The notes under the pieces: generated by a model
Databases searched by the model: none
Told to the model about the DNA's origin: nothing
The model's input: the letters and a program-made list of their open reading frames with translations, nothing else
In this document: one piece after another, positions 39,003-54,960 of the stretch
Position numbering within the stretch: position 1 is the stretch's first letter
How the letters are laid out: every line of letters begins with the position of its first letter
Program-made: the position numbers and the translations under genes
Assembly: GCA_938031185.1 (NCBI GenBank)
Contig: CALHGX010000002.1
Location: 16,010-80,009, forward strand
DNA from: an uncultured bacterium
GTDB lineage: Bacteria; Verrucomicrobiota; Kiritimatiellia; CAIKKV01; CALHGX01
Length of the DNA: 64,000 bases
Direction: 5' to 3'

Positions 39003-40310
39003 CTACAAGAGATCAGCGGCCAACGCCGCCAATGCGCTGCGTTCGCTCTTGACCAGCGTAACGTGGCCATGCACGGCTTCTTTCTTCATGCGTTCCACGG
39101 CATAGGCCAGTCCGTTGCTGCTGGAGTCCAGATACGGGTTGTCAATCTGGTACGGGTCTCCGGTCAGCACCATTTTGGTTCCCTCCCCGGCCCGGCTAAC
39201 GATCGTCTTGATTTCGTGCGGGGTCAGGTTTTGGGCCTCATCCACAATCACGTACTGTCGCGGAATGGACCGTCCGCGAATGTATGTCAATGCCTCCATC
39301 TCCAGCACCTGTTCGCGCTGCAGCCGTTCGATCTTCTCCCGCAGGGAATGGCGATGGTCGCCGTTCGGGCTCTTGAGCATGAGATACGTCAGATTGTCGA
39401 AAATCGGCAACATCCAGTTGGCCAGTTTTTCTTCTTTGTCCCCGGGCAGATACCCAATGTCCCGCCCGAACGGCATGATCGGCCGCGAGACAAGCATGCG
39501 ATCGTAGCGTTTCTGGTTGATGCTCTTCTCGAGCGCCGCGGCCAGCGCCAGCAGCGTCTTGCCGGTCCCGGCCGGCCCCATGAGCGTCACCAGCGCCACG
39601 GAATCGTCCAGCAGCAACTCGAGCGCCATGCGTTGCTCACGGTTGCGCGGCTTGACATGCCAGGCAGAGTCCGATTCCGGCCGCAGCGGTCGGAGCGTGC
39701 CATCGGCGCCCGCCCGAACCAGCACGGTTCGGTGTGCCCCCTCCTCGGACCGGAGCAAAACGAACTCATTCGGAAAAAACATCGCGTCGGACAGCCGAAC
39801 CGACCGATTGGCTTCAAAAGCGTCCATTGTTTCCGGCGGCACAAGCCATTCCCGGAATCCGCTAAAGAGTTCGTCGAAGTTGACCTTTTGTTTCTCGAAA
39901 TCCATCACCTCAATGCCCAAGGCATCGGCCTTGATACGGGCGTGGATGTCCTTCGAAACGAAAATGACGCGGTGCCCCTCCTGCGCAAGCAGGTGGGCCG
40001 CCCCGATAATTCGGTTGTCGGGGACGTCATCGTGCAGGCCCGCCGCTTGAGGCGAACGGTTATGGGTAATCCGCAATTCCCCGCCGTTGTCGAGCGGCAC
40101 CCCTTCGCCCAACCGTCCACGCAGGCGCAGAATATCCAGCCGGCGAATCGCCCAGCGCGCATTGCGGCCGAGTTCGTTGTTCTGGGTCTTGAAGCGGTCC
40201 AGCTCCTCGATCACCGCCATGGGCAGCACCACGATGTTGTCAGCGAACGATTCGATCGCGGAGGGGTCGTGCAGGATGACGTTGGTATCGAGGACAAAAT
40301 ATTTTCTCAT
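39003..40310 (-). CDS. PhoH2-type protein (N-terminal PIN domain fused to a PhoH ATPase)
   Basis: MRKYFVLDTNVILHDP (PIN), Walker A GPAGTGKTLLALAAAL and Walker B VIVDEAQN. The ATG is 12 nt after the upstream stop, with a GGGGGA SD. Confidence 0.9.
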   Translation of the reverse strand: MRKYFVLDTNVILHDPSAIESFADNIVVLPMAVIEELDRFKTQNNELGRNARWAIRRLDILRLRGRLGEGVPLDNGGELRITHNRSPQAAGLHDDVPDNRIIGAAHLLAQEGHRVIFVSKDIHARIKADALGIEVMDFEKQKVNFDELFSGFREWLVPPETMDAFEANRSVRLSDAMFFPNEFVLLRSEEGAHRTVLVRAGADGTLRPLRPESDSAWHVKPRNREQRMALELLLDDSVALVTLMGPAGTGKTLLALAAALEKSINQKRYDRMLVSRPIMPFGRDIGYLPGDKEEKLANWMLPIFDNLTYLMLKSPNGDHRHSLREKIERLQREQVLEMEALTYIRGRSIPRQYVIVDEAQNLTPHEIKTIVSRAGEGTKMVLTGDPYQIDNPYLDSSSNGLAYAVERMKKEAVHGHVTLVKSERSALAALAADLL

Positions 40311-40322
40311 GCGTCCCCCGGC

Positions 40323-42380
40323 TCACCCCGGCATCACGGCGAAGGGCTTTGGTATCTGGCCCGTCACGAAGTAGTAGACGAAACCGACGAGTATGGGAAT
40401 GATTCCGCCAAGCATGTCGCCGGCGATCAGCCCGAACATAAACGGTTTGAGCTTCTGGTAGCCTGCGGCGCCGCCATACTTGGTCACCAGCGTCTTGATG
40501 AGCCACCCAGCGAAGAACGAAGCGGCGAACACATGGGCGAAGTAGGTGCTCCATAGCAGGAAGATGACCGGATGCAGCGGCCATTTCGGAAAGCGCAAAC
40601 GTCCCGCCGTGAACAGCAGGAACAACCCGAGGCCGACCGCAAAGTATAAGCCATATTTCGCGTCAGGAGACGCCATCTTGAATCGGGCCAAACCAGTGGC
40701 CGTTCCGGCCAGTTCAAGCGCATCCTGGGCCGCCAAACGCTGGCGCTGCAGCATGACTTCCTTGAACGGCTCGCGCGCCATCCAGTACGTGGCCCAGCCG
40801 TCCGCCATGTTGGCTCCCCGATTGTATTGGAAATACAGCTGCACCGGCAGGGCGACGGCGAGACCCACGATCACCGCCAACACGCATAGAATGGCCACAC
40901 GGCCGACGCGATTGCCGAACATCTCGTTGAGCTTCAGCGAATTGACCACAAACGGCATGAGCGATTCGCGAGGATCCACCATCAGGATCACGGAAACAAG
41001 CAGCATGATCATCATTGAACGAGGATCGGCCGCCAATGGCCCCAAGAACCCGAGCAGGATGGCGCAAGGGAAAACGAACGGCTGAATGAGAAAGAGCCCC
41101 GTCTCCGCCATGATGCGGCTCATCCCAAGAAAGATCATCACGGTGCCCAAGGAGAACAGCAGCGCCAGTGGCCAGTCCAGGCCCACCAGCACGAGGTTGG
41201 CGACCATGAGCACCAGAGCGACCACAAACGCCCGAGCGCCCCAAACAGCTGCCGGCTCCGGCTCCTCGGCACTCGGCAGGAAAAAGGCGCGGCGAAGGAC
41301 GAGGCTGTAGTAATGCCGGCCAGTGTAGGCAATGACCAGGAACAGCCCAAAATAGGCCCCGAAATTGAGGAACGAAATCACATTGGGGGCCATGTAACCG
41401 GAACCGCCTGTGCTGATGCCGTACTGCAGCAACACCGCCGCAATGTAGGAATAGATCCAGGGGCCGAGGAAAAGCGACACGGACACATCCGTCGCGAGAA
41501 AGTAAGCGAACGCAATAACCGTGAAAAAGAACTTCGGATTGTAGAGCACCGCCACCCATCCCAACTGATCGGGCCAGAGCCGTTCGAAAACCGGCACCAG
41601 CTTGCTGAGCGGCAGAAAGTTGAAGGAGAGCGGCACCTTGACCATCACAGCCGGAAACCACTGGCAGGCATAATTGTTCAGATGAATAGCCAGCACGAAA
41701 GCCGCGCCGATCCAGAACGGCCGGCTGTGCAGCACACGCCCCATCGCGGCTCCCGCGGTCTGCGGCAGCAGCGCGCTCGCGAACTGCGCGATGGGATACG
41801 GCAACTGCTCATGCCGCGCCCACTGGCGGTGCACCACCAGCGAAAGGCCGGTCAGGGCCACCCACACGGACAGCAGTAGCGGCACCCAGAATGCCAGCGT
41901 CCGCGTCCAAGCAAACCAGGGGATCTGCGACAAGCCGATTCGTTTTTGACCCACCCCAAGCCCCTGAATGAACCCGTTGAGCGTCGTCGCCTCCTCCCGG
42001 CTGATGTCCGCCAGCATGCGAGCCGGCACCAGCTCCAGCACCTTCTGCTCCTGCCATCCGGGATCCAACCGGGCGTAGTGGTGCGGCAGAATCAGCGACG
42101 TGGTGAAATAGCGCATCAGCCCGGACCCTGGAATGCAGCAGGCAGCCAGCGTGATACCCATTGCCAGGGCCAGTTCCGAACCCGAGAAATCCCAGCGGCG
42201 GCCCAAGCGCGCCAGCAAAGAATTGACCAGCAGCACGAACAGGATGAGGCCGCCATACACCGCAATCGGCATGTTGTTGCCGACGAGGAAGGTCTGACGC
42301 ATGACGGCATCGTTGAAATACGAAAAGCCGCAAATCAGCCCCACCCCAATCAAGCCCAGCCCTATCGCCCTGCGCGTCAT
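40323..42380 (-). CDS. 685-aa polytopic membrane protein, family not recognised
   Basis: Hydrophobic segments run throughout (LICGFSYFNDAVMRQTFLVGNNMPIAVYGGLILFVLLV...). The ATG is 17 nt after the ABC ATPase stop. Confidence 0.7.
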   Translation of the reverse strand: MTRRAIGLGLIGVGLICGFSYFNDAVMRQTFLVGNNMPIAVYGGLILFVLLVNSLLARLGRRWDFSGSELALAMGITLAACCIPGSGLMRYFTTSLILPHHYARLDPGWQEQKVLELVPARMLADISREEATTLNGFIQGLGVGQKRIGLSQIPWFAWTRTLAFWVPLLLSVWVALTGLSLVVHRQWARHEQLPYPIAQFASALLPQTAGAAMGRVLHSRPFWIGAAFVLAIHLNNYACQWFPAVMVKVPLSFNFLPLSKLVPVFERLWPDQLGWVAVLYNPKFFFTVIAFAYFLATDVSVSLFLGPWIYSYIAAVLLQYGISTGGSGYMAPNVISFLNFGAYFGLFLVIAYTGRHYYSLVLRRAFFLPSAEEPEPAAVWGARAFVVALVLMVANLVLVGLDWPLALLFSLGTVMIFLGMSRIMAETGLFLIQPFVFPCAILLGFLGPLAADPRSMMIMLLVSVILMVDPRESLMPFVVNSLKLNEMFGNRVGRVAILCVLAVIVGLAVALPVQLYFQYNRGANMADGWATYWMAREPFKEVMLQRQRLAAQDALELAGTATGLARFKMASPDAKYGLYFAVGLGLFLLFTAGRLRFPKWPLHPVIFLLWSTYFAHVFAASFFAGWLIKTLVTKYGGAAGYQKLKPFMFGLIAGDMLGGIIPILVGFVYYFVTGQIPKPFAVMPG

Positions 42381-42397: not shown

Positions 42398-43132
42398 TCA
42401 CTTCACCGTGCCGATCCGGATGTCCACGTCGGCCCGCCGCTGGAGTTTCTCGATCGCACCGTCGCGAATCCAGAGGATCCGATCCGACACGTCGAGCATC
42501 TTGTGATCGTGCGTGGCCGTGATCACCGTCACCCCTCGCTCCTTGCTCAGCCGATGCAGCAGATGAATGATCTCTTCGCCGGTATGCAGGTCGAGATTCC
42601 CGGTCGGTTCGTCGGCCAGAATGATCGCCGGATCGTTGGCAAGCGCCCGCGCGATGGCTACGCGCTGCTGCTGCCCGCCGGAGAGCTCGTCCGGCCGGTG
42701 CGTCAGGCGATGCCCCAAGCCAACAGAGGCAAGCACCTCCCGAGCCCGTTTCAGGGCGTCGTCGTACCGCACGCCGCCGAAAACCAGCGGCAGCGCCACG
42801 TTGTTGACGGCGTCATAGGCGGGGATCAGGTTGAACGTCTGAAATACGTACCCGATGTGGTTGCCGCGAAAATACGCCAGCTGCCGGCTCGTGAGCGCGG
42901 TCAGCCGAACGCCCGCCACGGTCACCTCGCCGGCGGTAGGCCGGTCCAGCGCGCCGATCATGTTGAAGAGCGTGCTCTTGCCCGACCCAGACGGCCCCAT
43001 AATCGAAAGGTACTCGCCCCGGTAAATATCCATGGAGACCTCCCGCAGGGCCTGCACCAACGTCTTGCGGCCCAGCCGGAACTGCTTGCTGAGGTTCCGC
43101 ACCTGGATCAAAACTTCCGGGTCTGTTGCCAT
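42398..43132 (-). CDS. ABC transporter ATP-binding protein, MacB/LolD class (copy 2)
   Basis: Walker [16 protein letters not shown], signature [15 protein letters not shown], Walker [13 protein letters not shown]. Confidence 0.9.
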
Positions 43133-43145
43133 GGACGCTCCACCA

Positions 43146-45134
43146 TCAGAACGGCAGGTGAATCACCGCCTTGCTGAGAAACGTGATTCCGACTCCGATC
43201 GTCGTGACCAACCCCTGCCCGCAGGCAAAACCGGCGGCCACAACGGGAATATACTGCCGCCAGTTCAACCCGACGCGCTTCTGGAAATAGTACCGCCCGA
43301 GCAGCGCGCCGATGAACTGCGGCAGCACGCTATGCGGGAGCGTCTGACCGAGGCCGCGCACGATGCCGTAAACCATAAACACCGGCGCCCCGAGCGACGC
43401 CATACCGCCGATGAGGCCGAGCCCGAACAGCATGCCGGCGCCAAGATAAAGCGCGTTAAACGCCTGTTCAAAAATCGAATATTCCCCGAGTGTCGCCGAG
43501 TACATGATCGAGTTGTTGGCCGCCTGCAGTTCCCACATCTGCTGAGCGAAGGGATAGACCGCCGAGGGCAGTTCCGCGAGCCCCCAGATGAAGTTGGCAA
43601 AGAAGATCGAGCTGAAAATCACGATCGGATACAGGACGAGCTGCGACTTCCAGATGCTGGAGAAGCGCGTCCCGGTCAGCTCGCACTGCCGGTAGAACAC
43701 CGTCATCTGGCCGTAGTTGCCCATCGGGATCGGCAGGAACCAGCAGGCCACGCCTTTGTAGCCGCTAAAAATTAATGCCGCTTCGCGGATCATCGGGATT
43801 TCCACCACCTGGCCGACCATGCCCTCCAACCGCGCGGTCACGTAGCTGATGAGCGGCGTATACACGAACCCCAGGATGACCATCACCGTCATCACGCCCC
43901 GATGCCAGTTGATGAGGAACCCGGACATGACAATATAAATGGTCGTCACCACGAAATAGCACAGCAGGATGGCCCACAGGCGGATGTCGCCCCGGCCCGA
44001 CGGCGGACCGCCGCCCTGCACCGCTGCCGCCAGCGGCGCCTGCTTCTTCCGTTCCCGCAGACTGCGGACGACCTGCACGATGCCCGCGACGGCGATCGCC
44101 AGCGAAATGCCGATCGTGAAGCTGAAATAGAAGTCCACGTTGTTCTTGAACATGGTGGCAATGGTGTCGTCGCCGCGCGACCATGACGTCAGGATTTTGA
44201 AGTGGTACAGAAAGGGATTGGCCACCATGGTCATCACCAGACCGATGAAACTGCCCAGCATTCCAAAGAAGGGGAAGACCATCCCGAAAATAAGATTGCC
44301 CAAATCCCACGAAATGCCGGTGGCCACGGCCGGCAACAGGGCCTGCGTTTTCGTCGTGAAGTCGCTGAAGGGAATCGGAAAGATCATGATCGGCGAGCCG
44401 GTCAGCGCGCCCGTCAGGGTGGGCAGCAGCAGGTAGACGGAACCAAACGCCAGTCCGAGCGCGCCGCCGATCGAGAAAATCCGCCAGCGCCAGTTCTTCT
44501 GCCGCGCCTCGGCATCCTTTTCCTCCACATCCTCGGCCAGCGCGAGCACGCCCTGCGCCCCGATGGGGGCCATAGGGAACGGGAGCTTCTCAATGTCGCT
44601 GGCGATGCGGAACAGGCCGTAGCCCAGCACCACGTTCTTGAGGTTGCCGAAGAAGGTGGAAAACACGATCAAGCCGATGGCCGGCAGCCAGTCACGATGG
44701 AAGAAGGTGCGCCGCACGTAGGAGGGCGAATCGGCGAACGGCGCATACCACGAGGGCAACCACTCGCTGATGCCATAGGCCGTGGCCGCTTCGCTGCGAG
44801 GATAAAACTGCTGCCAGAGCAGCCCCGAAAACGGCATCCCCATCGCCGCGCCGGCCATGAAGAAGAGCACGAATATCTCCGCCTTCTTCAGTTGGCGCTG
44901 CGCGCGGCGCGCCACCTCGATAAAAAGGATCACCGTCACCCATTGCGCCGCGGGGCCGATGCCCTGGCCGGCCAGCAACCCCATGTAGAGCGCACCCGGC
45001 ACCATCAGGACGGCGATGAAGAGCGCGCCGACAAGCGATGCCCAGTTGAAGCCCTCCTCGAAAGTCGAGGGCACCTGCATGATATTGCGGAACTCTTCGA
45101 GCTCCCGATCCGTTTTTCTCGGTCGTGTGTTCAT
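43146..45134 (-). CDS. ~662-aa polytopic membrane protein, family not recognised
   Basis: Hydrophobic throughout (FNWASLVGALFIAVLMVPGALYMGLLAGQGIGPAAQWVTVILFIEV...). The ATG at 45134 overlaps the stop of the giant upstream gene (ATGA). Confidence 0.7.
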   Translation of the reverse strand: MNTRPRKTDRELEEFRNIMQVPSTFEEGFNWASLVGALFIAVLMVPGALYMGLLAGQGIGPAAQWVTVILFIEVARRAQRQLKKAEIFVLFFMAGAAMGMPFSGLLWQQFYPRSEAATAYGISEWLPSWYAPFADSPSYVRRTFFHRDWLPAIGLIVFSTFFGNLKNVVLGYGLFRIASDIEKLPFPMAPIGAQGVLALAEDVEEKDAEARQKNWRWRIFSIGGALGLAFGSVYLLLPTLTGALTGSPIMIFPIPFSDFTTKTQALLPAVATGISWDLGNLIFGMVFPFFGMLGSFIGLVMTMVANPFLYHFKILTSWSRGDDTIATMFKNNVDFYFSFTIGISLAIAVAGIVQVVRSLRERKKQAPLAAAVQGGGPPSGRGDIRLWAILLCYFVVTTIYIVMSGFLINWHRGVMTVMVILGFVYTPLISYVTARLEGMVGQVVEIPMIREAALIFSGYKGVACWFLPIPMGNYGQMTVFYRQCELTGTRFSSIWKSQLVLYPIVIFSSIFFANFIWGLAELPSAVYPFAQQMWELQAANNSIMYSATLGEYSIFEQAFNALYLGAGMLFGLGLIGGMASLGAPVFMVYGIVRGLGQTLPHSVLPQFIGALLGRYYFQKRVGLNWRQYIPVVAAGFACGQGLVTTIGVGITFLSKAVIHLPF

Positions 45135-48100
45135 GACGGCTGCCCCGACATCGCCTCGCCCGCCCGGGCGCCACCCCATTCCGCCAGCGTGCGTTCCCGG
45201 TATATTTCCATCGTTTCGCGCGGCAGCGAACGCCAGATGAGAAACTGGCGCCGCAGGTCATCCAACAGCACCTTGTTCAGCCGCTGCCAGTCCTTCGGCT
45301 GTCCCGATTGCCGCTCGATGCGAATCCCGACTTCGTCAATGCCGGCAATTTCGCTCGGGCGGCTGAACAGACGGAAGGACTGAGTGACGCCCAGATCAAA
45401 CGGCGCCAGCGCCACGTGGGCCTCCAATCCCGCGCCGGCCTCCGGGCGGGCCAGCCGCACGTCCTGGGCGATGAAAAGTCCGAGCCCCGTGTCGCGATGA
45501 TTCTCAAAATGCTCACGAAGGAAGCTGACCACGCCGGTGATGTCGTATTGCGAAACCGTGAAGGGAAACGTGATCTCGAACACGTCGCCTTTCGGCGGCG
45601 GCAGGCGCCAGGATCGCAGCAGCCCGGGATTCGCGCTCCGCGAGGCCTTGATCGCCGGATAGATCGCCGAAACCAGTACGGTGCCCATGACGATCAGAAT
45701 TGTGATGATCGAATTCATGGAGGAATAGTTCATCTCCGGCACAGGCGCCAAACCCATCGCGGCCAACCCGCTCAGCGCTTTCATCACCGCCTGCGCCAGC
45801 AGATAGCCGCCCATGCCGCCAATCACGGAATAAACCATGGCCTCCGCGAAGAAGAGACCGGCCACATGCTGCGGCGCCAGCCCGAGCGCGCTGAACGTGT
45901 ATATTTCCCGTTCCCGATCCGCCACCGAGCCCAGCATGGTGCCGAAGATCACGAGACCGCCGAGGAGAATGGGGAAGAGCAGGTCCTTCGCGCCGCTCGC
46001 CTGCACCAGCGCGTCCAGCACATGGCGATAGACGCCGTCCTCGCGCGTCGCCGCCACGGGAATTTCAAGGGCGCGAGCCAGGTCTTCGCCAATCTGCGTC
46101 GCGTCTCCGTGGTTCGCGGTATAGAAGGTCATCGCGTGAACGCGCGCGCCGAGCTGCTCCGCCGTCCGGTCGGACACCACCAGCACGGAGTCCGCCGGCA
46201 GCACGGTCCAGTTCTCCTGCTGCTCCGCGGCGCCCTTGACCGGCGGAATCCCCAACTGCTGTTGCAGGTTCTGGTTCTCCGTGAAATCCACCGGCAACAC
46301 CTGGCTGGCGTCCATGTCTTTGATGGCCATCAACATCGCGGGATTGAGCAGCCGCCCCACATGCAGCCGCACACCGCGCAGCATCACCTCGTCGCCGGGT
46401 CCGACGCCCACACGCTGCGCCACCGCCGGCGTGACCCAAACGGTTTCATCCAACGAAACACCGTCCACCGGCTGCAGAAGCTCGGCCAAATCGGGGCGGA
46501 ACCGCCGTTCTTCCTCCGCCACACCCAGGAGCCCCCGCATGGCCGCCGGGCGACTGCCGTCCGGTTGGGACAGCAGCAACCCTTCGCCCTGCTGCGTCGT
46601 GGGCGAAACCCAGCGGCGGACGCAGAGCGTTCCCTGCCCGCGCCATCGCCCCGAGATGATCAACGGCAACTCGGCCGGCAACGCGCTCCAGTTCACCTGG
46701 CGCACCTGGACGCCCGTGTAACCAGGCGACGGCCGGACAAACTGCCGCACCACACCCAGCCGCTTGTCGAACGACGCAAAGCACAAGATGGTAAATGTGA
46801 GCAGGATGATGGTGGTCGCCGTCAGCGCCGTGCGCAGCGGCCGCCGCCGCATCGTGGAAATGCCCATGCTCATGGCGGCCAGAATCGTGCTCATCCGGGA
46901 CACATCGGCCGCATGCACCGTCGAAGTCAGCCCCTGAATCACCTTCAATTCCACCTCGAACTTCTGCATGATGATGGCAATCACCAGCCCTGAAAGCACC
47001 ACTACCGCGAACCCCAAAAAGATGATGACTGGCGTCTTGGATATGGCGAACGCCGGATGAGTGAAGAAGAGTATCAGGAACGTGGCCAGGAAAATGCCCG
47101 CGAACCAGGCAATCTGCCGATACACGTTGGTTGAACCCACCAGCAGCCGCTCAGCCGCGAAGGCGAACGGAATGCACAGCGCCAGCAACACCAACACCGC
47201 CCGCACCAAGTCGTCCAGCGTAGCGCGCACACTGTCATAGACGGGCTTTTCGCCCATCAGCGCAAACGCCGCCAGCGCCTGCGCCCGCTCAGCGGGCGCC
47301 CCGGCGGCATCGCCAATCATGTCCTCGTCTCGCCCGTGCAGCTCTTCCAAGGAGGAATTGAGAATGCCCCGCTCCCGAAGGATATCCATTCGACTCTCAT
47401 TCAACCGCCACAGATCCGCCGCGCTGCGCCGGGTCACCGCCGGAACCGTCCAATAGTCCGTCAGCGGGAACCCGACCCCCTCGGGCGCAAACGCATCGCC
47501 GCCCCGAAGCGTATCCTCCGGGCCGTTGACCAAGCCGACGGCCGAGTTGACGCCAAAGAGCTTGACGGACGTCACGCGTTCATCCGCAAACCAAGCCACC
47601 ACGCCATCCATCGTCGCATAGAAAGCCTTGGAATCCGGCAGCACCGCGTTCACCGGCGCGTCCAGCACTTGCGCGGTGCCCTGCCGGAGCAGCGGCGGAA
47701 GGATGATGGCGCCACCCCGGCACTGATGCACAGCCAGCCGTTCATACACCTTTCCGGCAGAGGCATTCGCCGAAGCGTAAGCCACCCGCCCCCGCTCGTC
47801 AAAAGCGGCCGCAAAGCCGTTGACACGCCAGTGATCGGGATCCGGCGGAACCGGTCCATACCCGTACGAACCGGCGCCGTCACACACAATTACCGGACAG
47901 ACATCAAAGGCCCTAATCTTCTGCTCCTGATGGCCCGCGCCGGGCATTGCGTTGTGTAATTGAATTTGAACCACCGCGCCCGCCATGGGCAGGTTGGCCA
48001 AGGTGCTGCCCCGGGTCCGACCCATGACCATCGGACCCTCCACGCGATAATCCTTCGTGAAAAGCCGGGACACGTATTCCCTGTCGCGCTGGATCGAGCT

Positions 48101-49945
48101 GGGCTGGGAAAGCCCCTCTTGGTCTGCCACCGCGCCGATCAGTCGCGCCATTTCGTGCATTTGCGCCTCCAGACGCGTTAGGTCCAGCCGATCCAGGGTG
48201 TCGTCCGGCGTGCCTTCTCTCCGCAGGGGTTCCTGTGCCGTTCCTAACACCAGATTGTAGAGGCCGAGCCGTCCGGCAATCTCGCCGCTATGCGTTAAAT
48301 GCGGCGCGCCGCGCAGCACGTCCTGCGGAATCAAGGTGCCGTCTGCCGTGGCCGTTTCAAATCCCCCCAGCTTGACCCCGCCCTTCTCCAATTCAGCCGC
48401 CGCCGCCATGAAAGACGCCTGAATGCGCCCATAAAGACCGGGGCGATCCTTGTCGGACCGGATCGGCGAGTGGCCTCCGATCAGCAGGCCCCACCGCGGC
48501 GAGGCATCGCCCAGCAACAGGGAGATGTGCAGCTTGATCTGCGCATCCCCTAGCACCGCCCGCACTTTTTCATCCGACGCCAGCGCGATGGCTTCGAAAT
48601 CGAGCTCCTCCCGCCGCCGCTCCAATGCCGCTTTGACTTCGCGCAGCACGTCGCCCATTTCCGGTGCATCCGCCCTCAACAAGGCGTCTTGCCCGCCGGC
48701 GAATGCACGCGCCGCCCGCCCCAAGGCCCGCCGTAAATCGTTCCATCTGGCTTTGCGCTCCTCCATCTCCCGGATGCGTTGCCGCAGGATGTCTTGATCC
48801 GTTGCCGAATCAGCTGCCGCCAAGGCCCGCCGCAAATCGTAGAGCCGGGCCATGGCGTCATAGGTGCGCACCAGAGCGCGCTCCTGCAGCCGACTGATCA
48901 GCTCCCGGCGAACCGCCACGTCCCGCGCCAGCGGTTCGGAACGCGCCGTGGCCTCCAGCATGGCGGAAAGAAAATCTTTCTCCCGCGCCAGCGACTCGCG
49001 TTGCTTCGCCGGATCCAAATCCAGTGCCCGGTAAAACTCGGCCGCCCCGGCATGCGAGCGGGCCTGTCCATCCAGAAACGCCAGCAGCACATGCCGTCGC
49101 GGCGGGTGCCGCTTGAAATGCTCCGCCATCTGCAACAACGCCGCCACATTGGCGGCCCCGCGCGCGCCGGGCGATAATTCAGGCGCCTCCCCGTAACTAT
49201 CCAGCGGCACGGCCACGACCACCAGTTCCTCCTTCTCCATCTGGAAGACCGGCCCAGTGCCTCGGACAAGTCCAAACACGTTGCGACACGGCGCGCGTTC
49301 CCATCGGGCGGCGCTGCGAATCGTTGCCGTCGCGCCGGCCGGCAGATCAGCGCGCGGGCCGTTGTATAAATATCGGGGCAGATTGGCCGGCGCCATGGTG
49401 TAGTGACTGTACGCGCCATCGCATTCGCCTTCGCGCACGAAAACCACGGCCGCTGCGCCCAGGCGAAACGCCTCCATCCAGCCCCGGCTATTGTTGTAAT
49501 CAAGCACTACAATGGCGTTCGCTGGCAATCCCGCGCCGAAATTTGCGGGAGATCCGGCGCCGGCGTGAACCACCGGCCCCGTCAGTCCTTCGGGCGGCGT
49601 CACCGGCGGCACGACGCCGTTGGGTCGCATAAGCACTAGCTCGCGCGTCACCGCCGGTCCGGTGGCATTCGAAATCGTGATGTCGCAGGCCAGTGTGCGA
49701 AGCCGTGCGCCGACGAAATCCTGGACAAAAACCTCGTCGACTCCAATCTGCTTCAGACGGCTCTCAACGTAGTCGGCCGCGCGCCGTCCAGCTTCCGTTC
49801 CAGCCAGTCGGTGCGGATCGCTCGTCAACGCGAGACTGTCTTCGCGCAGGGTCGCCACGTCGGCCGCCGCCAGCCGCGCGCCGATCGCCGCGGCCGCCAG
49901 CGCCGGCCGCCATGCCCCGCCCCATCTGTTTTTCCGCCCCGTCAT
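45131..49945 (-). CDS. ~1,604-aa fusion: degenerate PA/M28-like ectodomain + long helical region + TM bundle + FtsX/MacB-type permease + C-terminal domain
   Basis: The N-terminal anchor is followed by M28-like LAGTEAGRRAADYVESRL. A PA-like AIVVLDYNNSRGWMEAFRLGAAAVVFV follows. The FtsX module runs from RRRPLRTALTATTIILL (~46.85 kb) to ILIVMGTVLVSAIYPAIKASR (~45.65 kb). About 170 further aa have no recognised family. Start taken at ATG 49945. Confidence 0.75.
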   Translation of the reverse strand: MTGRKNRWGGAWRPALAAAAIGARLAAADVATLREDSLALTSDPHRLAGTEAGRRAADYVESRLKQIGVDEVFVQDFVGARLRTLACDITISNATGPAVTRELVLMRPNGVVPPVTPPEGLTGPVVHAGAGSPANFGAGLPANAIVVLDYNNSRGWMEAFRLGAAAVVFVREGECDGAYSHYTMAPANLPRYLYNGPRADLPAGATATIRSAARWERAPCRNVFGLVRGTGPVFQMEKEELVVVAVPLDSYGEAPELSPGARGAANVAALLQMAEHFKRHPPRRHVLLAFLDGQARSHAGAAEFYRALDLDPAKQRESLAREKDFLSAMLEATARSEPLARDVAVRRELISRLQERALVRTYDAMARLYDLRRALAAADSATDQDILRQRIREMEERKARWNDLRRALGRAARAFAGGQDALLRADAPEMGDVLREVKAALERRREELDFEAIALASDEKVRAVLGDAQIKLHISLLLGDASPRWGLLIGGHSPIRSDKDRPGLYGRIQASFMAAAAELEKGGVKLGGFETATADGTLIPQDVLRGAPHLTHSGEIAGRLGLYNLVLGTAQEPLRREGTPDDTLDRLDLTRLEAQMHEMARLIGAVADQEGLSQPSSIQRDREYVSRLFTKDYRVEGPMVMGRTRGSTLANLPMAGAVVQIQLHNAMPGAGHQEQKIRAFDVCPVIVCDGAGSYGYGPVPPDPDHWRVNGFAAAFDERGRVAYASANASAGKVYERLAVHQCRGGAIILPPLLRQGTAQVLDAPVNAVLPDSKAFYATMDGVVAWFADERVTSVKLFGVNSAVGLVNGPEDTLRGGDAFAPEGVGFPLTDYWTVPAVTRRSAADLWRLNESRMDILRERGILNSSLEELHGRDEDMIGDAAGAPAERAQALAAFALMGEKPVYDSVRATLDDLVRAVLVLLALCIPFAFAAERLLVGSTNVYRQIAWFAGIFLATFLILFFTHPAFAISKTPVIIFLGFAVVVLSGLVIAIIMQKFEVELKVIQGLTSTVHAADVSRMSTILAAMSMGISTMRRRPLRTALTATTIILLTFTILCFASFDKRLGVVRQFVRPSPGYTGVQVRQVNWSALPAELPLIISGRWRGQGTLCVRRWVSPTTQQGEGLLLSQPDGSRPAAMRGLLGVAEEERRFRPDLAELLQPVDGVSLDETVWVTPAVAQRVGVGPGDEVMLRGVRLHVGRLLNPAMLMAIKDMDASQVLPVDFTENQNLQQQLGIPPVKGAAEQQENWTVLPADSVLVVSDRTAEQLGARVHAMTFYTANHGDATQIGEDLARALEIPVAATREDGVYRHVLDALVQASGAKDLLFPILLGGLVIFGTMLGSVADREREIYTFSALGLAPQHVAGLFFAEAMVYSVIGGMGGYLLAQAVMKALSGLAAMGLAPVPEMNYSSMNSIITILIVMGTVLVSAIYPAIKASRSANPGLLRSWRLPPPKGDVFEITFPFTVSQYDITGVVSFLREHFENHRDTGLGLFIAQDVRLARPEAGAGLEAHVALAPFDLGVTQSFRLFSRPSEIAGIDEVGIRIERQSGQPKDWQRLNKVLLDDLRRQFLIWRSLPRETMEIYRERTLAEWGGARAGEAMSGQPS

Positions 49946-49958
49946 CTTCGCTCGCCTT

Positions 49959-50741
49959 TCACGCCGTGACGCCGCCGATGGCGCCGACCTCGATATGCAC
50001 CTCATCCCGACGCGCAACACGTTCGATGCGCCCGTCGCGAATCCACATCAAACGGTCGCAAATATCCAGCATGCGGTGATCGTGAGTGGCGCATATGATC
50101 GTCACGCCCCGCTTGCTGTTCAATTCGCGCAGAATCTCCAGTATTTCGCGGCCCGTGTGCAAATCAAGATTGGCCGTCGGTTCGTCACAGAGCAGGATGC
50201 TGGGCTGGTTCGCCATGGCCCTGGCGATGGCCACGCGCTGCTGTTGTCCCCCCGACATCTCGATCGGCCGGTGGTGCCAGCGATCCTTCAAGCCCACGAT
50301 TTCCAGCAGGTCCATGCCCCGCCGCCGCGCCTCATCGGGCTCGACACCGGCAAAGGCCATCGGCGTCGTCACGTTCTCCAGCGCTGTCTGGTACTGAATG
50401 AGGTTGTACGTCTGGAAGATGTAGCCGATCTTGCGGCAGCGCAGAAAAGCGATTTCCACCGCCGTCAACTGCGCCACGTCCACCTCGTCTATGAAGACCC
50501 GCCCGCTGCTCGGACTGTCGAGCCCGCCGATCATGTTGAAATAGGTGCTCTTGCCTGACCCCGATGGGCCCATCACCGAAATGAACTCGCCGGTATAGAT
50601 TTCGGAATCCACGCCCCGCAGCGCTTCCGTGACGACGTTCTTCCTCACGTACTGCTTCTTCAGCGCCAGCGTTCGTATAATCACCCGCCGCCCGGCCCTG
50701 GCGGTCTCTGCCGCCGCCGGCTCTATTTGCTGCGCGTTCAT
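49959..50741 (-). CDS. ABC transporter ATP-binding protein, MacB/LolD class (copy 1)
   Basis: Walker [16 protein letters not shown], signature [15 protein letters not shown], Walker B ILLCDEPTANLD. ATG at 50741. Confidence 0.9.
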   Translation of the reverse strand: MNAQQIEPAAAETARAGRRVIIRTLALKKQYVRKNVVTEALRGVDSEIYTGEFISVMGPSGSGKSTYFNMIGGLDSPSSGRVFIDEVDVAQLTAVEIAFLRCRKIGYIFQTYNLIQYQTALENVTTPMAFAGVEPDEARRRGMDLLEIVGLKDRWHHRPIEMSGGQQQRVAIARAMANQPSILLCDEPTANLDLHTGREILEILRELNSKRGVTIICATHDHRMLDICDRLMWIRDGRIERVARRDEVHIEVGAIGGVTA

Positions 50742-50766: not shown

Positions 50767-52245
50767 CTACTCGATCCGCATGGCCTCCATCGGTGCCAAT
50801 CGGGCCGCTTTCCAGGAAGGATACAGCGAAGCCAGCGCCGCCAGGCCAACACCCACCACCACGGAGGCCGCCACGGCTAGGGCCAGCGCGGCCCACGGCG
50901 TGGCGACCAGCGCCGGCCAGCCCAGGCTCGACCACATGCGCCCGACCGCAATCACCGCGCCGACCGCGCCACCGATGAAGCCGCCCACCACCCCCAGCAT
51001 GCAGGCCTCCAACACAAACACCAGCATGATGAATCCGTCCAGCGCTCCAAGGCACTTCAGCGTGGCAATTTCCCGAAAACGCTCCGTGACGGACATCAAC
51101 ATCGCGTTGGCAATGCCGACCACGCAGACGACCAGCGACACCAGCACCAACCACCCCATTCGTTCGCCCACCCCCATGAAACCGCCGCCCATTCCGGCGC
51201 TCATCACCCAAATTCGTTCGAGCTGCCGCTCCCGTCTCTTGTGCTCCGCCAGGCCAACAATGTCCGCTGCCGTGAGGTTGGCGCCGGGCAACTTCAGTTC
51301 GCGCAAGAGGCCCGCATACCAATCCGCAGAAGCGGCATCGCCCAACATTCTCCATAACCGTTCCGAACTGACCTGGGCCGGAAGCATGTTGAGCCGCCGC
51401 GCCACAGCCCGCCGCATCTCGGCCACGCTGAAACTCTCTTCGATCATGCGGGTCGCGACGCTACGGCGAGCTTGCTCCGCAACGACTTTCGCCGTGGCCG
51501 GATCCATCCGGAAACCTGCCGCCACGATGGCGCGGACGAATTCGCCGTTGTTTTCGCCCAATCGTTCAATCACCGCTTGGTCGCCCCGGGCCGCCGCTAC
51601 AGCAGCCACCGCCCGGCTGCGTCCCTCGCATACTCGCAAAGCCCATTGCTTCGTCTGCTGCCAATCTCGGACAAAAGCCTGTTCCTCTTCCTCCTTCAGC
51701 GGCCAGCGCAGCGACCGCAACGCATCCCGTTCCCGCTGATAACGCGCCTGCTCCTCCGCGGTTTGCAGGCGGTCAAACAACTCCGTTCCGGCCGCCGTGT
51801 GCGCCAGGCGCCGCTGCCGCGCGTAGTCGAGACCCGCCACAAAATCAAGCCAGCGCACAGCGATCAACGCCTGCTCATGAAAACGCCTCATTTCATCCGC
51901 TGTGAGCCCCCCCTGCGCCTGAATTTCCTCCCACATCGGATCGCCGGGCTGGCTCGCGCCCAGATCCCGCAGCGTCTGCTCCACCGTGCCTGCCATCGCC
52001 AGCCGTGAGGCCCAAACCGCCGCCTGGCGAAGCTCTGCGATGTCACGGGCCGCGCGCCGGGCCAGCGCGCCCTTGATCAGCCCCTCGCCCACCACATTCA
52101 TCATGAAGGCGATGGCCACGGCCACGACCACGACGGTGACAAGGGATCGAAACAGGCGGTAGCGGATGCCGTGCAGCATCAGCTCAAAGGTGCGCGCCAA
52201 CCCCAATTTCGGCTGATCCCGAATGTCAATCGGCCGTGTTGTCAT
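50767..52245 (-). CDS. FtsX/MacB-type ABC permease with an atypical Ala/Arg/Glu-rich extracytoplasmic domain
   Basis: TM1 is RSLVTVVVVAVAIAFMMNVV. About 330 aa of helix-biased sequence follow. The FtsX core is ERFREIATLKCLGALDGFIMLVFVLEA...YPSWKAARLAPMEAMR. ATG at 52245. Confidence 0.8.
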   Translation of the reverse strand: MTTRPIDIRDQPKLGLARTFELMLHGIRYRLFRSLVTVVVVAVAIAFMMNVVGEGLIKGALARRAARDIAELRQAAVWASRLAMAGTVEQTLRDLGASQPGDPMWEEIQAQGGLTADEMRRFHEQALIAVRWLDFVAGLDYARQRRLAHTAAGTELFDRLQTAEEQARYQRERDALRSLRWPLKEEEEQAFVRDWQQTKQWALRVCEGRSRAVAAVAAARGDQAVIERLGENNGEFVRAIVAAGFRMDPATAKVVAEQARRSVATRMIEESFSVAEMRRAVARRLNMLPAQVSSERLWRMLGDAASADWYAGLLRELKLPGANLTAADIVGLAEHKRRERQLERIWVMSAGMGGGFMGVGERMGWLVLVSLVVCVVGIANAMLMSVTERFREIATLKCLGALDGFIMLVFVLEACMLGVVGGFIGGAVGAVIAVGRMWSSLGWPALVATPWAALALAVAASVVVGVGLAALASLYPSWKAARLAPMEAMRIE

Positions 52246-52636
52246 ATGCCACTGCCACAATGCCCCGCTGCACCAGCGAACGAAGGTAGGAAGATACCGA
52301 CGCCCGCGCCTCGTGAAAAGTCAATTTGTGTCGTTCGGCAAAAGTTTCGATCATCTCCTCCACCCGCCGCCCATCGCACAAGCCCCACACCTCGGCGCCC
52401 AGCCGGTCCAGCGTAAACGGCTTGGCTTGTTTCGGTCGGATGATCCATCGCAAGGCGCCGGTCATCCACGGCAACGGCTGGGTTCGAACCGTCACGCGAA
52501 CCGTCCCGTCGGCCCGTGTTTCGGCCGACGCCGCGGCGTTCCGAATCGCCTTCGCCTCCAACATGCGCCGCCAGGATCCGTCTGGAACGCCTTCCACCTC
52601 CTGCCGTGGCCGCTTGCGCCCTTTTCTCACGCTCAA
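52226..52636 (-). CDS. PqqD-family (RiPP-recognition-element-like) protein
   Basis: FTLDRLGAEVWGLCDGRRVEEMIETFAERHKLTFHEARASVSSYLRSLVQRGIV matches the PqqD pattern. Start uncertain: TTG 52636 (overlaps the upstream TGA), GTG 52630 or ATG 52564. Confidence 0.7.
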   Translation of the reverse strand: MSVRKGRKRPRQEVEGVPDGSWRRMLEAKAIRNAAASAETRADGTVRVTVRTQPLPWMTGALRWIIRPKQAKPFTLDRLGAEVWGLCDGRRVEEMIETFAERHKLTFHEARASVSSYLRSLVQRGIVAVAYDNTAD

Positions 52637-53520
52637 AGACCTCTATGAGCCCGCAGCGGAAAGTCGCCGCAGCAGGACAAACGCCCTCCCGCCAAATCGG
52701 CGGCGCGCGGCGCGGCGTGGCGCTCGACCGATATGCAATAAAGCCGCCCGTCCCGCGGACACATCCAAGCGGCCGCCCGATACACCTCGCGCCGTCCGCG
52801 CAAGCGCCCCAGCCCCCTTACGGGACGATCGCCCTCCACCCATTCCACGGAATGACCCGCCGATGCGAAAACATCCCGGCGGCGAATGGAAACATCCGCC
52901 GGTTTCTGCAGCGCCAGCCAATCCCTCACCGTTCCTTTCAGCCATTCCGGAACCAGTCCCAGCCTCACGAAAGTCTCCCTTTGTCGCGGCGGCTTTCCCT
53001 TGCAAAACGTGATGTGCGTTGAAGCAGGCTGTACGCGGCACTCCGCGGGGCCTTCCCCGCCGGATACCAGCCAGTCCATGCCAAACGCCCGCCAGCGGCG
53101 CAAGTCCTCCCCCCATGGCGGCTCCGGTTGCATGCCTTCCAGGATGGCCCTCTGCAACGCCACATCCGGATCCCCCGGCCATATGAAGACGGCTTCCACC
53201 AAACACGCCTCCCGTTCGAAATACGCGCCAAGCCGGGATATCCATCGGCCGCCTTGCTTTCCCCGCAAACCGCGCCAGACACCTCTTTTCTCCGGCTGGG
53301 GGTCCGTGAGCCCCCCGGCCGTGGTCAGGCGCGCTTGATAGTCGGACAACATGCGTTCGAAGTCCGGGCGCCCCGGCACCTGCCGCCAGTTGAACTCGAA
53401 CCGATACTGATACCGGTCCGCAAAAACGCAGCGTCCCGCCGCCGGATCTCGAGAGAGCTGCAGCATTTCCCAATCCGCCGGCAGCTCCATCCGGAAATGA
53501 CGCCATACCCATAATCTCAT
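52633..53520 (-). CDS. Hypothetical protein, first gene of the operon
   Basis: The open frame runs 52633..53664, but that start is TTG. ATG candidates are 53571, 53520 (MRLWVWRHFRMELPADWEML...) and 53490. No family recognised. Confidence 0.5.
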   Translation of the reverse strand: MRLWVWRHFRMELPADWEMLQLSRDPAAGRCVFADRYQYRFEFNWRQVPGRPDFERMLSDYQARLTTAGGLTDPQPEKRGVWRGLRGKQGGRWISRLGAYFEREACLVEAVFIWPGDPDVALQRAILEGMQPEPPWGEDLRRWRAFGMDWLVSGGEGPAECRVQPASTHITFCKGKPPRQRETFVRLGLVPEWLKGTVRDWLALQKPADVSIRRRDVFASAGHSVEWVEGDRPVRGLGRLRGRREVYRAAAWMCPRDGRLYCISVERHAAPRAADLAGGRLSCCGDFPLRAHRGL

Positions 53521-53730: not shown

Positions 53731-54438
53731 TCAACCCGTCGAGCTTTTCGAGCGGGTGTCCGAAGGCGAAAGCGCTTGGACCGGACAAACCGCCGCGCAT
53801 TCCATGCACTGGATGCAATCCCGTTCCAGGACGGTGCCGGTTTTTTTCCATGACACGATGGGAAGCCCCATGGGGCATACACGCTCACAAACCTTGCACT
53901 CCTTGCATTTCGCCCCGTCGAATTGAAGCGGATGTCGGAGCAGACCTACGATGTTTTGCATCGTGCCGCCTGGACAGAAGAAACACCATGCGCGTGGCCG
54001 CAAGAAAAAGCCGAGTATCACGCCCACGGCTGTGGTCACCAGGCACATGCCCCAGAAAACCCGGCCCCAATGCCGCCAATCAGCCGGATTCTGGAGTATT
54101 CGATAGAGCATGAACCCCATCAGAATGATCAACAGCGGCCACCGAAAAGCACGCTGTCTAAGAAACAAGGGGGTTCGCCCCATTCTGCTAATGGGCGCAA
54201 TAACACGATCAAAAAAGGCGCCGCGCGGGCACAGATTGCCGCATACATACCGTCCCCGGAAAACGGCCCCTATCAGCCCCATCAGCATAACCACCGGCAC
54301 GGCAAAACCTAGAATCGGATAACGCCATCCCAAGCCGATGACGATCGGAACGACAGGAACAAGTATCCACTGCACCTGTCTTCGCCGGCGAACACTAGCC
54401 TGCCACTCATTGTCTCGCTTCCTGATGTTTCCGTTCAT
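53731..54438 (-). CDS. Membrane-bound 4Fe-4S-binding protein (NapH/MauN/NosR-like)
   Basis: TM segments with CGNLCPRG and CFFCPGG motifs. The C-terminus has two ferredoxin motifs, CKECKVCERVCP and CIQCMECAAVCP. Confidence 0.8.
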   Translation of the reverse strand: MNGNIRKRDNEWQASVRRRRQVQWILVPVVPIVIGLGWRYPILGFAVPVVMLMGLIGAVFRGRYVCGNLCPRGAFFDRVIAPISRMGRTPLFLRQRAFRWPLLIILMGFMLYRILQNPADWRHWGRVFWGMCLVTTAVGVILGFFLRPRAWCFFCPGGTMQNIVGLLRHPLQFDGAKCKECKVCERVCPMGLPIVSWKKTGTVLERDCIQCMECAAVCPVQALSPSDTRSKSSTG

Positions 54439-54960
54439 AAACAAAGAATAACCCGTAAAGCGCTTCCTTTTCTATCATGATTGAGCGCGCATGGCCCGGC
54501 GAGAATGCCCGGCTTCCCCTGCGGCCCCTCGTCACTTCGCGCCTTTTTCCATTCCTTCACGTCCAATCGCGGCCGGTCGCGCAGCGCCATTCGGCGAGCG
54601 GCCCAATGCGTCCGAAGAAACGAAGACGCGCCTTCACGTCCCCCATGTTGCACAGCCAGGCGGCCATGCGCCTTTCACATCTTTTTGTCGCCATCTCTCG
54701 CCTGTTCATTCCAACGCCAAGCGGCAGCCGTTGCTCGCTTCAGCCGTCGAACGGATTCAATGGCATTCGCGATGCAGCCACAGCGCAATGTATCAAGCCC
54801 CCTCTTTCTTCAACCGGTTCTTCACGAAACATGGCTTGAAGAAAAGAAAGAATACGTCGTCGAGCAACTGAAGGATGGAGCCCCGCACCCCGGCGGGCCA
54901 AGAAAGATGGGGCTCGCCGTCCGATCTGCCAAGACCCGGAGCAAAGCGCGTGGGCACGGC

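Follow-up and report, generated by a model that had tools for sequence, protein, structure and literature searches.

A giant FtsX-type ABC permease with a degenerate M28/PA peptidase-like ectodomain in a conserved operon of an uncultured Kiritimatiellia bacterium

ABC (ATP-binding cassette) systems of type VII are a small and intensively studied class, new members of which have revealed efflux, lipoprotein extraction, amidase control and lipid hydrolysis. In FtsEX-EnvC, a type VII ABC system, a coiled coil links the drive to an M23/LytM domain that is catalytically dead (PMC7668044), and YbbAP presents substrate to a bound hydrolase (PMC12646458). Here we describe a giant gene (45131..49945, minus strand, as are all features given below) in a window of 64,000 nucleotides, that is, the whole stretch of DNA analysed, which covers positions 16,010 to 80,009 of contig CALHGX010000002.1 (assembly GCA_938031185.1) of an uncultured Kiritimatiellia bacterium. 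We found that its product joins an ectodomain of the M28/PA (protease-associated) peptidase fold to a transmembrane (TM) bundle and an FtsX-type permease, and that metal ligands of the peptidase have been replaced. It is fairly probable, in our judgment, that the giant protein is the large permease subunit of an ABC mechanotransducer of the MacB/FtsX/LolCE (type VII) kind, with a non-catalytic, peptidase-like receptor as its working end. The architecture and the operon on which this proposal is built are solid and unexpected.

The giant gene encodes 1604 residues and a stop codon in a single uninterrupted open reading frame (ORF), which extends to 45131..50020 if counted from an upstream GTG; its ATG at 49945 lies 13 nt past the stop codon of the upstream ABC-ATPase gene. 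Database protein P0001 has exactly the length and sequence of this product. A word-indexed search with the giant protein returned 189 database clusters, and the 120 relatives among the matches listed were 1500-1950 residues long and 47-58% identical, with a coverage of 93-100% for nearly all of them and of 73-84% for a few that bear insertions. Relatives were also found in 313 of 185,579 species in a scan of one genome per species. Public annotations call these proteins hypothetical protein, "FtsX-like permease family protein" or "M28 family peptidase". The unusual length, and nothing else, would favor an artefact in which a secreted M28-like gene and an FtsX permease gene had been merged by a sequencing or assembly error, a concern already raised in the sequence-only reading of this DNA. 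The reading frame is uninterrupted, however, and the same collinear architecture of about 1600 residues recurs at 97-100% coverage in the 189 clusters, in independent assemblies that include Oligosphaera ethanolica DSM 24202, and in the 313 species genomes, so that a merger is excluded for practical purposes and its probability is negligible.

Pfam and NCBIfam searches with the giant protein alone gave only FtsX as significant, and recognizing the fold of the ectodomain therefore took a family profile and a structure model. A profile built from 104 giant-family members and searched against PDB sequences matched the PA-containing aminopeptidase 2ek8 (E 1.3e-13; query residues 28-308), YwaD/BSAP (6hc6; E 9e-9; residues 40-311), nicastrin (8kco and 5a63; E 1.5e-5; residues 200-351) and TfR1 (3s9l and 1de4; E 5e-4; residues 28-141). 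Structure prediction and a Foldseek search, both proposed in the sequence-only reading, agreed: the AlphaFold2 model of residues 1-1010 had a predicted local distance difference test score (pLDDT) of 87.8 and a predicted template-modelling score (pTM) of 0.84, and it retrieved 2ek8 at 2.7e-17 as well as BSAP, PaAP, TfR1 (8e-16) and GCPII (1e-13), in alignments of 610-680 columns that covered the query to about residue 610. TM-scores on the target were 0.46-0.59 for the bacterial aminopeptidases 2ek8, BSAP/YwaD and PaAP and about 0.35 for TfR1 and GCPII. The Pfam M28 score of the giant protein alone was sub-threshold (15.6 bits against a cut-off of 21.3), and homologues exceeded the gathering score with up to 37 bits; Pfam PA was above its cut-off in one homologue (P0076), and the highest Pfam Nicastrin score, 24.7 bits in homologue P0067, was just short of the 25-bit cut-off. 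Residues 34-608 (about 575 residues) therefore have the fold of a PA-containing M28 aminopeptidase. The ectodomain had been likened to the transferrin-receptor/PSMA-like branch of M28, and fold matches to TfR1 and GCPII do exist; the closest relatives are nevertheless bacterial PA-containing aminopeptidases, and Pfam TFR_dimer had no match in the giant protein or in five homologues.

An internal comparator is provided by a bona fide M28 peptidase in the same window (1412..2413; Pfam 1.2e-32), which contains the motifs GAHYDT, ANDSGSG and FFDGEEA. Its gene overlaps by 11 nt the 3' end of a ParB-like gene (2403..3299) on the same strand. In the giant protein, a Sec-type signal peptide (residues 1-33; 49847..49945) has a basic n-region, an Ala-rich h-region and an end at AAA followed by D, and homologues have short h-regions and AxA sites. 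Reading this N-terminal helix as an uncleaved first TM segment was disfavored, since the N-termini of homologues resemble ordinary signal peptides. The N-terminal part of the M28-like fold (residues 34-100; 49646..49846) is present in the model and aligns to 2ek8, to TfR1 and to the N-terminal helix of the window M28 peptidase. The PA, or apical, domain (residues 101-225 or thereabouts; 49271..49645) was aligned to the PA regions of 2ek8 and YwaD, was detected by Pfam in P0076 as given above, and was skipped in the HMM alignment to a PA-less M28 protein; it includes the PA-like segment AIVVLDYNNSRGWMEAFRLGAAAVVFV at 49435..49516. A PA-like insert had been predicted to follow the catalytic motifs. 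The domain is real, but it is an early insertion in the M28 fold and lies N-terminal to the catalytic-motif region.

The catalytic-motif region itself falls in the first core segment (residues 226-309; 49019..49270), in which the HxD, Asp-loop and Glu-Glu motifs are degenerate (P247/D249, R262/G263 and Q294/A295) and the model places a strand at 239-247, a helix at 261-279, a strand at 285-291 and a helix at 299-309. Next comes a helical insertion (residues 310-466; 48548..49018) with four long helices of 23-39 residues each in the AlphaFold2 model (312-334, 346-377, 381-413 and 427-465). This bundle of 155 residues interrupts the M28 fold after the "Glu-Glu" strand and helix and ahead of the core strand that comes next; the long helical stretch that had been noticed by eye is thus present, but it is internal to a fold that runs on to about residue 608 and does not follow it. 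The second core segment (residues 467-608; 48122..48547), recognized from the model and the span of the Foldseek alignments, contains LHISLLLGD (with D480), HSGE...GxYN and REGTPDD (with Gly578), and in the model it has a strand at 469-477, a later strand at 563-569 and a terminal helix at 589-606. A HMMER profile of this second half (residues 462-612) retrieved nothing meaningful from PDB sequences. The order of secondary-structure elements in the model is that of the canonical M28 topology.

The di-zinc site of M28 peptidases has five metal ligands, namely His, a bridging Asp, Glu, Asp and His, and the first Glu of a Glu-Glu pair is the general base. By eye, the comparator's motifs had been set against AVPLDS (49196..49213), PGARGAANVAALLQMAE in the Asp region (49121..49171) and AFLDGQA (49061..49081) of the giant gene. 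All of the quoted motifs were found where they had been placed, the comparator being an intact M28 peptidase on the minus strand, a strand that had not been specified. The family hidden Markov model (HMM), ivlaAnlDsfGevPrlspGARgA.AncAaLL...ffDaqa, aligned with IILGAHYDTKGGIADDFEGANDSgSGVGALL...FFDGEE of the window M28 peptidase, and the mapping of ligand positions obtained with the family profile against 2ek8 and YwaD agreed with that alignment. The by-eye conclusion that the His, Asp and Glu-Glu positions are replaced matches these alignments, and ligands that were present but offset, a concern raised with the by-eye comparison, were not seen: the profile alignments did not recover the ligands.

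Residue by residue, with counts taken in the ligand columns of 120 close relatives, the first His ligand (GAHYD) is replaced by Pro247, a position at which the relatives have Asn in 55 cases, His in 18, Pro in 15, Asp in 9 and Ala in 8, and the helper Asp of the same HxD motif is kept as Asp249 (Asp in 118). The bridging Asp (GANDS) corresponds to Gly263 or Arg262, depending on the placement of a one-residue gap, and neither is acidic (Arg in 118 at 262; Gly in 89, Ala in 14 and Ser in 8 at 263); the replacement noted by eye stands here with its exact position corrected. The general-base Glu (FFDGEE) is replaced by Gln294 (Gln in 93, Glu in 13) and the ligand Glu by Ala295 (Ala in 95, Ser in 15). 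REGTPDD matches the canonical YWHTPAD, and the last His is most probably replaced by the invariant Gly578 (Gly in 117 of the 120), a placement suggested by this motif match and by a weak local HMM alignment (a weak TPxD match to the window M28 peptidase). The positions of the fourth and fifth ligands rest on motifs and the order of secondary structure, not on a significant alignment. None of the 120 close relatives and none of 90 divergent members (at least 1400 residues) had the full ligand set. Divergent subfamilies (P0160, P0189, P0164 and others) show "GARD" (Asp263) or "DGHPADT" (His579), never the full set, and represent partial ligand retention or re-acquisition.

Structural motifs of the fold have been kept, namely D249, FxD292G, the G300 region, H552 of "DH.pF...G" and TPxD, and the conserved polar residues of the ectodomain are D249, R262, N266, D292, H298, H473, D480, H552, E555, E572, E577 and D582. 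One may ask whether the protein is an enzyme still, with a rebuilt site of H473, D480, H552, E555, E572 and E577 together with R262 that binds metal or catalyzes a different reaction. Many invariant His, Asp and Glu residues do remain in both M28 core segments, D480 is perhaps a retained fourth ligand, and some divergent subfamilies have the Asp at 263 or the His at 579. Against this, nearly all of the 210 members have non-functional residues (Pro/Asn, Gly/Arg, Gln, Ala and Gly) at four or more of the six canonical catalytic positions, H552 and D249 correspond by a by-eye motif match with the window M28 peptidase to conserved structural positions that are not ligands, and pseudo-M28 proteins of the same fold, such as TfR and nicastrin, are well established. 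We consider a surviving enzyme very unlikely.

Judged from these sequence comparisons, the giant protein would not be an M28 peptidase in the functional sense in spite of its M28/PA fold, since the defining catalytic features failed. We regard the ectodomain as a pseudo-enzyme whose former active site appears to be still under selection, because the ligands have been specifically replaced while the structural motifs were kept, and because residues 226-309, at 60% identity, are better conserved than any other periplasmic segment, 21% of their columns being conserved to at least 95%. Conservation is lowest in the helical insertion, which has 31% identity and 4% invariant columns.

The C-terminal half of the giant protein is a permease. 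Pfam FtsX matched residues 1325-1436 (E 9.4e-11; profile positions 7-117 of 120), and the model of residues 900-1604 (pLDDT 72 overall, 85-96 in the second periplasmic domain) retrieved MacB at 1.4e-12 in Foldseek, and also LolCDE, Spr0694/5, HrtBA, YtrEF, YbbAP and FtsEX; alignments to MacB, LolE and Spr0695 spanned 450-490 columns. Pfam MacB_PCD was sub-threshold in homologue P0082. The fusion of an M28/PA ectodomain to a TM bundle and a complete FtsX/MacB-type permease, as first proposed from the letters, is borne out by these matches. Scores for named NCBIfam subfamilies were far under their cut-offs (ADOP, 31.9 against 622 bits; DevC, 19 against 290; MacB, 10 against 966). By its fold and its Pfam domain the giant protein belongs to the type VII ABC superfamily, and it belongs to none of the named subfamilies MacB, LolC/E, FtsX, DevC and ADOP.

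Between the M28-like fold and the FtsX unit, the model shows a beta-rich periplasmic domain of no recognized family (residues 609-835; 47441..48121) and membrane-proximal helices (residues 836-905; 47231..47440), in which helices at 837-882 are followed by a helix of 51 residues (885-935) that forms a stalk into the first TM segment. Hydropathy indicates seven hydrophobic TM segments in all. Three of them are extra TM helices (TM-A to TM-C; residues 906-1000, at about 914-932, 946-965 and 972-995; 46946..47230), which are 71% conserved and lead into a basic cytoplasmic linker ending in RRRP (residues 1001-1036; 46838..46945). The possibility that these three helices are degenerate FtsX TM2-4, as in a duplicated permease like ADOP, YbbP or BceB, was unsupported (hhalign E 0.35). 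TM1 of the FtsX unit, seen by hydropathy and in the model, follows (residues 1037-1060, with the helix at 1040-1060; 46766..46837; 88% conserved), then a second periplasmic domain of 255 residues with an alpha/beta fold like that of MacB and LolCE in the model and in Foldseek (residues 1061-1315; 46001..46765), then TM2-4, identified by Pfam FtsX and Foldseek (residues 1316-1436, with the helices at 1320-1432; 45638..46000), and finally a cytoplasmic alpha/beta domain of 168 residues, delimited from the model and from conservation (residues 1437-1604; 45134..45637). No credible Pfam match at E<=10 was obtained for the C-terminal 168 residues, the beta-rich domain or the helical insertion, in agreement with the roughly 170 unrecognized residues that had been described at the C-terminus. 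These 168 residues gave a weak match to Bet v1/PYL/START folds (Foldseek E about 1e-3; TM-score 0.3-0.44) and are among the most conserved parts of the protein (67% identity; 36% of columns at least 95% conserved).

The first TM helix of FtsX starts in the cytoplasm. We infer that the M28-like module is periplasmic, because homologues carry signal peptides, the TM helices ahead of the FtsX TM1 are odd in number, and the loops after TM-A and TM-C are basic; an extracytoplasmic location had been assumed from the outset. The TM segments are 71-88% identical, far above the periplasmic domains, which suggests conserved partners or substrates within the membrane.

Seven genes, the giant gene among them, are tightly packed on the minus strand. 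In the direction of transcription, these are an orphan soluble protein of about 295 residues (52633..53520), a small FtsX-type permease of about 492 residues (50767..52245), a MacB/LolD/FtsE-type ATPase with an inferred start codon (ATPase 1; 49959..50741), the giant pseudo-M28/PA-FtsX permease at the center, an OPT-superfamily-like polytopic membrane protein (43146..45134), the ATG of which overlaps the TGA of the giant gene as ATGA, a second ATPase of the MacB/LolD type (ATPase 2; 42398..43132), and a polytopic membrane protein with DUF6785 and DUF6784 (40323..42380). Walker A and B, the Q-loop, the signature and the H-loop are intact in both ATPases. In synteny comparisons by tblastn of the operon proteins against 82 related loci, the order [DUF6785, one or two copies] - orphan - small FtsX - ATPase 1 - giant - OPT-like - ATPase 2 was conserved across phyla wherever the contig was long enough, and clustering of all other flanking ORFs at these loci gave no additional conserved neighbor.

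The OPT-like protein is 65-70% identical across phyla, far above the ectodomain of the giant protein, and Pfam OPT was matched at E<=0.1 by 24 of 26 orthologues, the best of them at 7.8e-12. An E-x-LP[FY]P motif is common to the OPT-like and DUF6785 proteins; the profile-profile comparison of the two (E 0.054) was not significant. The DUF6785+DUF6784 protein was always in the cluster, in one or two copies. Profiles of the DUF6785 and orphan proteins had no match among PDB sequences, and the orphan protein had no Pfam match; it has conserved W/C/R-rich motifs and heads the operon in more than 44 loci of several phyla. The small FtsX protein has normal MacB/LolC-like TM2-4, to which its PDB sequence match is confined, and its extracytoplasmic domain of about 310 residues is rich in Arg, Glu and Ala, apparently all-helical, and matches nothing known. 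This helical domain is a candidate partner for the helical insertion of the giant protein.

The operon bears directly on how the giant protein may work. ATP-driven manipulation of an envelope ligand, a plausible reading put forward from the sequence for a binding ectodomain on a MacB-like permease, is strengthened because the operon encodes two MacB-type ATPases and a second FtsX permease. Genes for a membrane-fusion protein, an outer-membrane factor (TolC-like), a LolA-like carrier or a hydrolase were not conserved in or beside the operon. The last of these matters for the idea of an EnvC-like regulator, in which the dead M28/PA domain would recruit and allosterically activate a periplasmic hydrolase encoded by another gene, such as a cell-wall enzyme, with no small ligand involved; the helical insertion would be a "restraining arm" released by ATP, so that FtsX and EnvC would in effect share one chain. 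FtsEX-EnvC does drive a coiled coil and a dead LytM domain in which a long helix blocks the groove (PMC7668044), the 155-residue insertion with its helices of 23-39 residues adjoins the former active-site strands in the model, and YbbAP-TesA shows that hydrolases can dock on type VII systems. However, besides the missing hydrolase gene, the poor conservation of the insertion is unexpected for a regulatory arm, and such a reading would not account for the OPT-like and DUF6785 membrane proteins, which invariably occur together with the giant protein. We consider such a regulator unlikely.

Equally doubtful is an extraction or efflux system like Lol, MacAB, YbbAP or HrtBA, in which a lipid, lipoprotein or hydrophobic compound would be removed from the inner membrane and the M28/PA domain would be a structural cap or a scaffold spanning the periplasm. 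The best structural matches of the C-terminal half are indeed MacB, LolCDE, HrtBA and YbbAP, the high conservation of the TM segments is as expected for a substrate or partners within the membrane, and the C-terminal cytoplasmic domain weakly resembles the Bet v1/START folds that bind hydrophobic ligands. Yet this last match is marginal, the cluster has no conserved membrane-fusion protein, TolC-like gene or LolA-like carrier, and no other periplasmic segment is as well conserved as the former active-site region, which points to a specific binding site and not to a passive scaffold.

The account that we favor, a mechanotransducer with a pseudo-peptidase receptor, could operate as follows. The giant and small FtsX proteins would form one heteromeric complex with the two ATPases, and the TM and stalk helices would relay the effect of ATP binding and hydrolysis in the cytoplasm, in the manner of MacB, FtsEX and YbbAP. 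This movement may open, close or reposition the former active-site cleft, which would thereby capture, release or hand over a periplasmic ligand. The ligand might be a peptide, or an envelope molecule that bears one, which the OPT-like and DUF6785 proteins would receive or supply; this is a guess and the least certain step, made because the ancestral fold binds N-termini and because the translationally coupled partner comes from the oligopeptide-transporter superfamily. In its most specific form, which we put forward as speculative and rather improbable, the proposal would describe a hitherto unrecognized envelope machine of the PVC group, in which a heteromeric type VII ABC motor moves a nicastrin/TfR-like pseudo-peptidase receptor that captures periplasmic peptides or protein termini and feeds or gates OPT-superfamily channels. 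If true, this machine would be a first both as an ABC-OPT hybrid and as a type VII system working in uptake, and it would be a bacterial analogue of the "dead peptidase as substrate receptor on a membrane machine".

Several points weigh against the favored account. The composition of the complex, the direction of transfer and the ligand are all drawn from gene order and fold. The ectodomain is joined N-terminal to the three extra TM helices and not inserted between TM1 and TM2 as in MacB and FtsX, the TM part of the models is of low confidence (pLDDT 56-72), and D480 may be a retained fourth (Asp) ligand. The relationship to OPT is a remote one, since the protein in the window scores 15.5 bits against the 25.8-bit Pfam cut-off, and a profile of the OPT-like protein had no match among PDB sequences. 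Known type VII ABC systems export, extract or signal, and we know of none that feeds an importer. A literature search found nothing on the giant-protein architecture, on DUF6785 or on the other components.

The family extends well beyond close relatives. An exhaustive HMMER search with the ectodomain gave 160 representatives at fifty-percent identity with E<=1e-30, including full-length members down to about 30% identity. The hosts are mostly Planctomycetota, Verrucomicrobiota (including Kiritimatiellia and Opitutales), Lentisphaeria/Victivallales and Omnitrophota, with further members in Sumerlaeia and Armatimonadota, and one host is a cultured strain, O. ethanolica DSM 24202. Because the family is present in at least 313 species genomes and its membrane parts are 70-88% identical across phyla, it points to a core envelope function in groups with poorly understood envelope biology, namely Planctomycetota, Verrucomicrobiota, Kiritimatiellia and Lentisphaeria. 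The cultured host makes both the giant protein and its operon open to experiment, and the operon gives a functional context to DUF6785, DUF6784 and the orphan family.

Other genes lie close to the operon in the window. A PIN-PhoH fusion (39003..40310) begins 12 nt downstream of the DUF6785 gene and is followed by an M20 peptidase gene (37540..38916); neither is conserved with the operon in other genomes. Just upstream, a 4Fe-4S ferredoxin-type protein with a membrane-associated Fer4_5 motif (53731..54444) is likewise not conserved with it. Outside the conserved operon, 55996..63279 encodes a protein of 2427 residues with InlB B-repeats (Flg_new_2), Laminin_G_3 and bacterial TSP3 repeats; this large protein is probably an adhesin or a surface protein.

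Among known systems, PA-domain M28 aminopeptidases (Aneurinibacillus AM-1 2ek8; Bacillus subtilis BSAP/YwaD, 6hc6; Pseudomonas aeruginosa PaAP, 8ac7) are the best matches by profile (1.3e-13) and by fold (Foldseek 2.7e-17 to 1e-15), and they carry the PA domain as an insertion at the same point of the M28 fold. They are soluble, secreted, di-zinc enzymes of about 410-490 residues, whereas the giant protein has the ligands and the catalytic Glu replaced and adds 155 residues of helices and a tether to a seven-TM ABC permease. TfR1 and GCPII (PSMA), of the M28B branch, share with it a protease-like and an apical (PA) domain on a membrane anchor, and TfR is likewise a non-catalytic, ligand-binding derivative of M28. 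TfR and GCPII have a TFR_dimer helical domain, which was not detected in the giant protein, where the helical element is an internal insertion and a beta-rich domain follows the fold; their anchor is an N-terminal type II TM helix, whereas the giant protein has an N-terminal signal peptide and a C-terminal polytopic anchor, and their TM-scores are below those of the bacterial aminopeptidases. Nicastrin, a subunit of gamma-secretase, is also a pseudo-M28 ectodomain without metal ligands atop a polytopic membrane machine, where it serves in substrate recognition or gating. It is, however, eukaryotic, has a single TM helix and partners an intramembrane protease, in contrast to the seven TM helices and ABC permease of the giant protein, and no presenilin-like gene was found in the neighborhood of the giant gene. 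The giant protein resembles TfR and nicastrin as a pseudo-M28 protein of the receptor type and does not show the features by which they are defined (TFR_dimer, type II anchor, nicastrin profile); it would be an independent bacterial example of the same design, in which an aminopeptidase was turned into a receptor.

On the permease side, MacB, LolCDE, YbbAP and Spr0694-0695 have, like the giant protein, a four-TM FtsX unit in which a periplasmic alpha/beta domain separates TM1 from TM2, and a MacB/LolD-type ATPase is encoded next to them; LolC and LolE are two different FtsX proteins encoded together, as in the giant-gene operon. Compared with MacB, LolCDE and YbbAP, this operon is without a membrane-fusion protein, outer-membrane factor or LolA and has two different ATPases and OPT-like and DUF6785 partners, and the giant protein adds an N-terminal ectodomain of 870 residues, three TM helices and a cytoplasmic C-terminal domain of 168 residues. 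The giant family would represent a fifth type VII architecture, defined by an M28/PA domain that is covalently fused and dead throughout the family, by three additional TM helices and a conserved domain in the cytoplasm, and by OPT-like and DUF6785 proteins as obligatory partners. No amidase partner was evident for it. EnvC of FtsEX-EnvC is the closest conceptual precedent, being a dead metallopeptidase-fold domain controlled through long helices by an FtsX-type permease and a MacB-type ATPase (PMC7668044). EnvC is a separate protein of the M23 fold that binds between two FtsX periplasmic domains, whereas the dead M28 domain of the giant protein is fused to its permease in cis.

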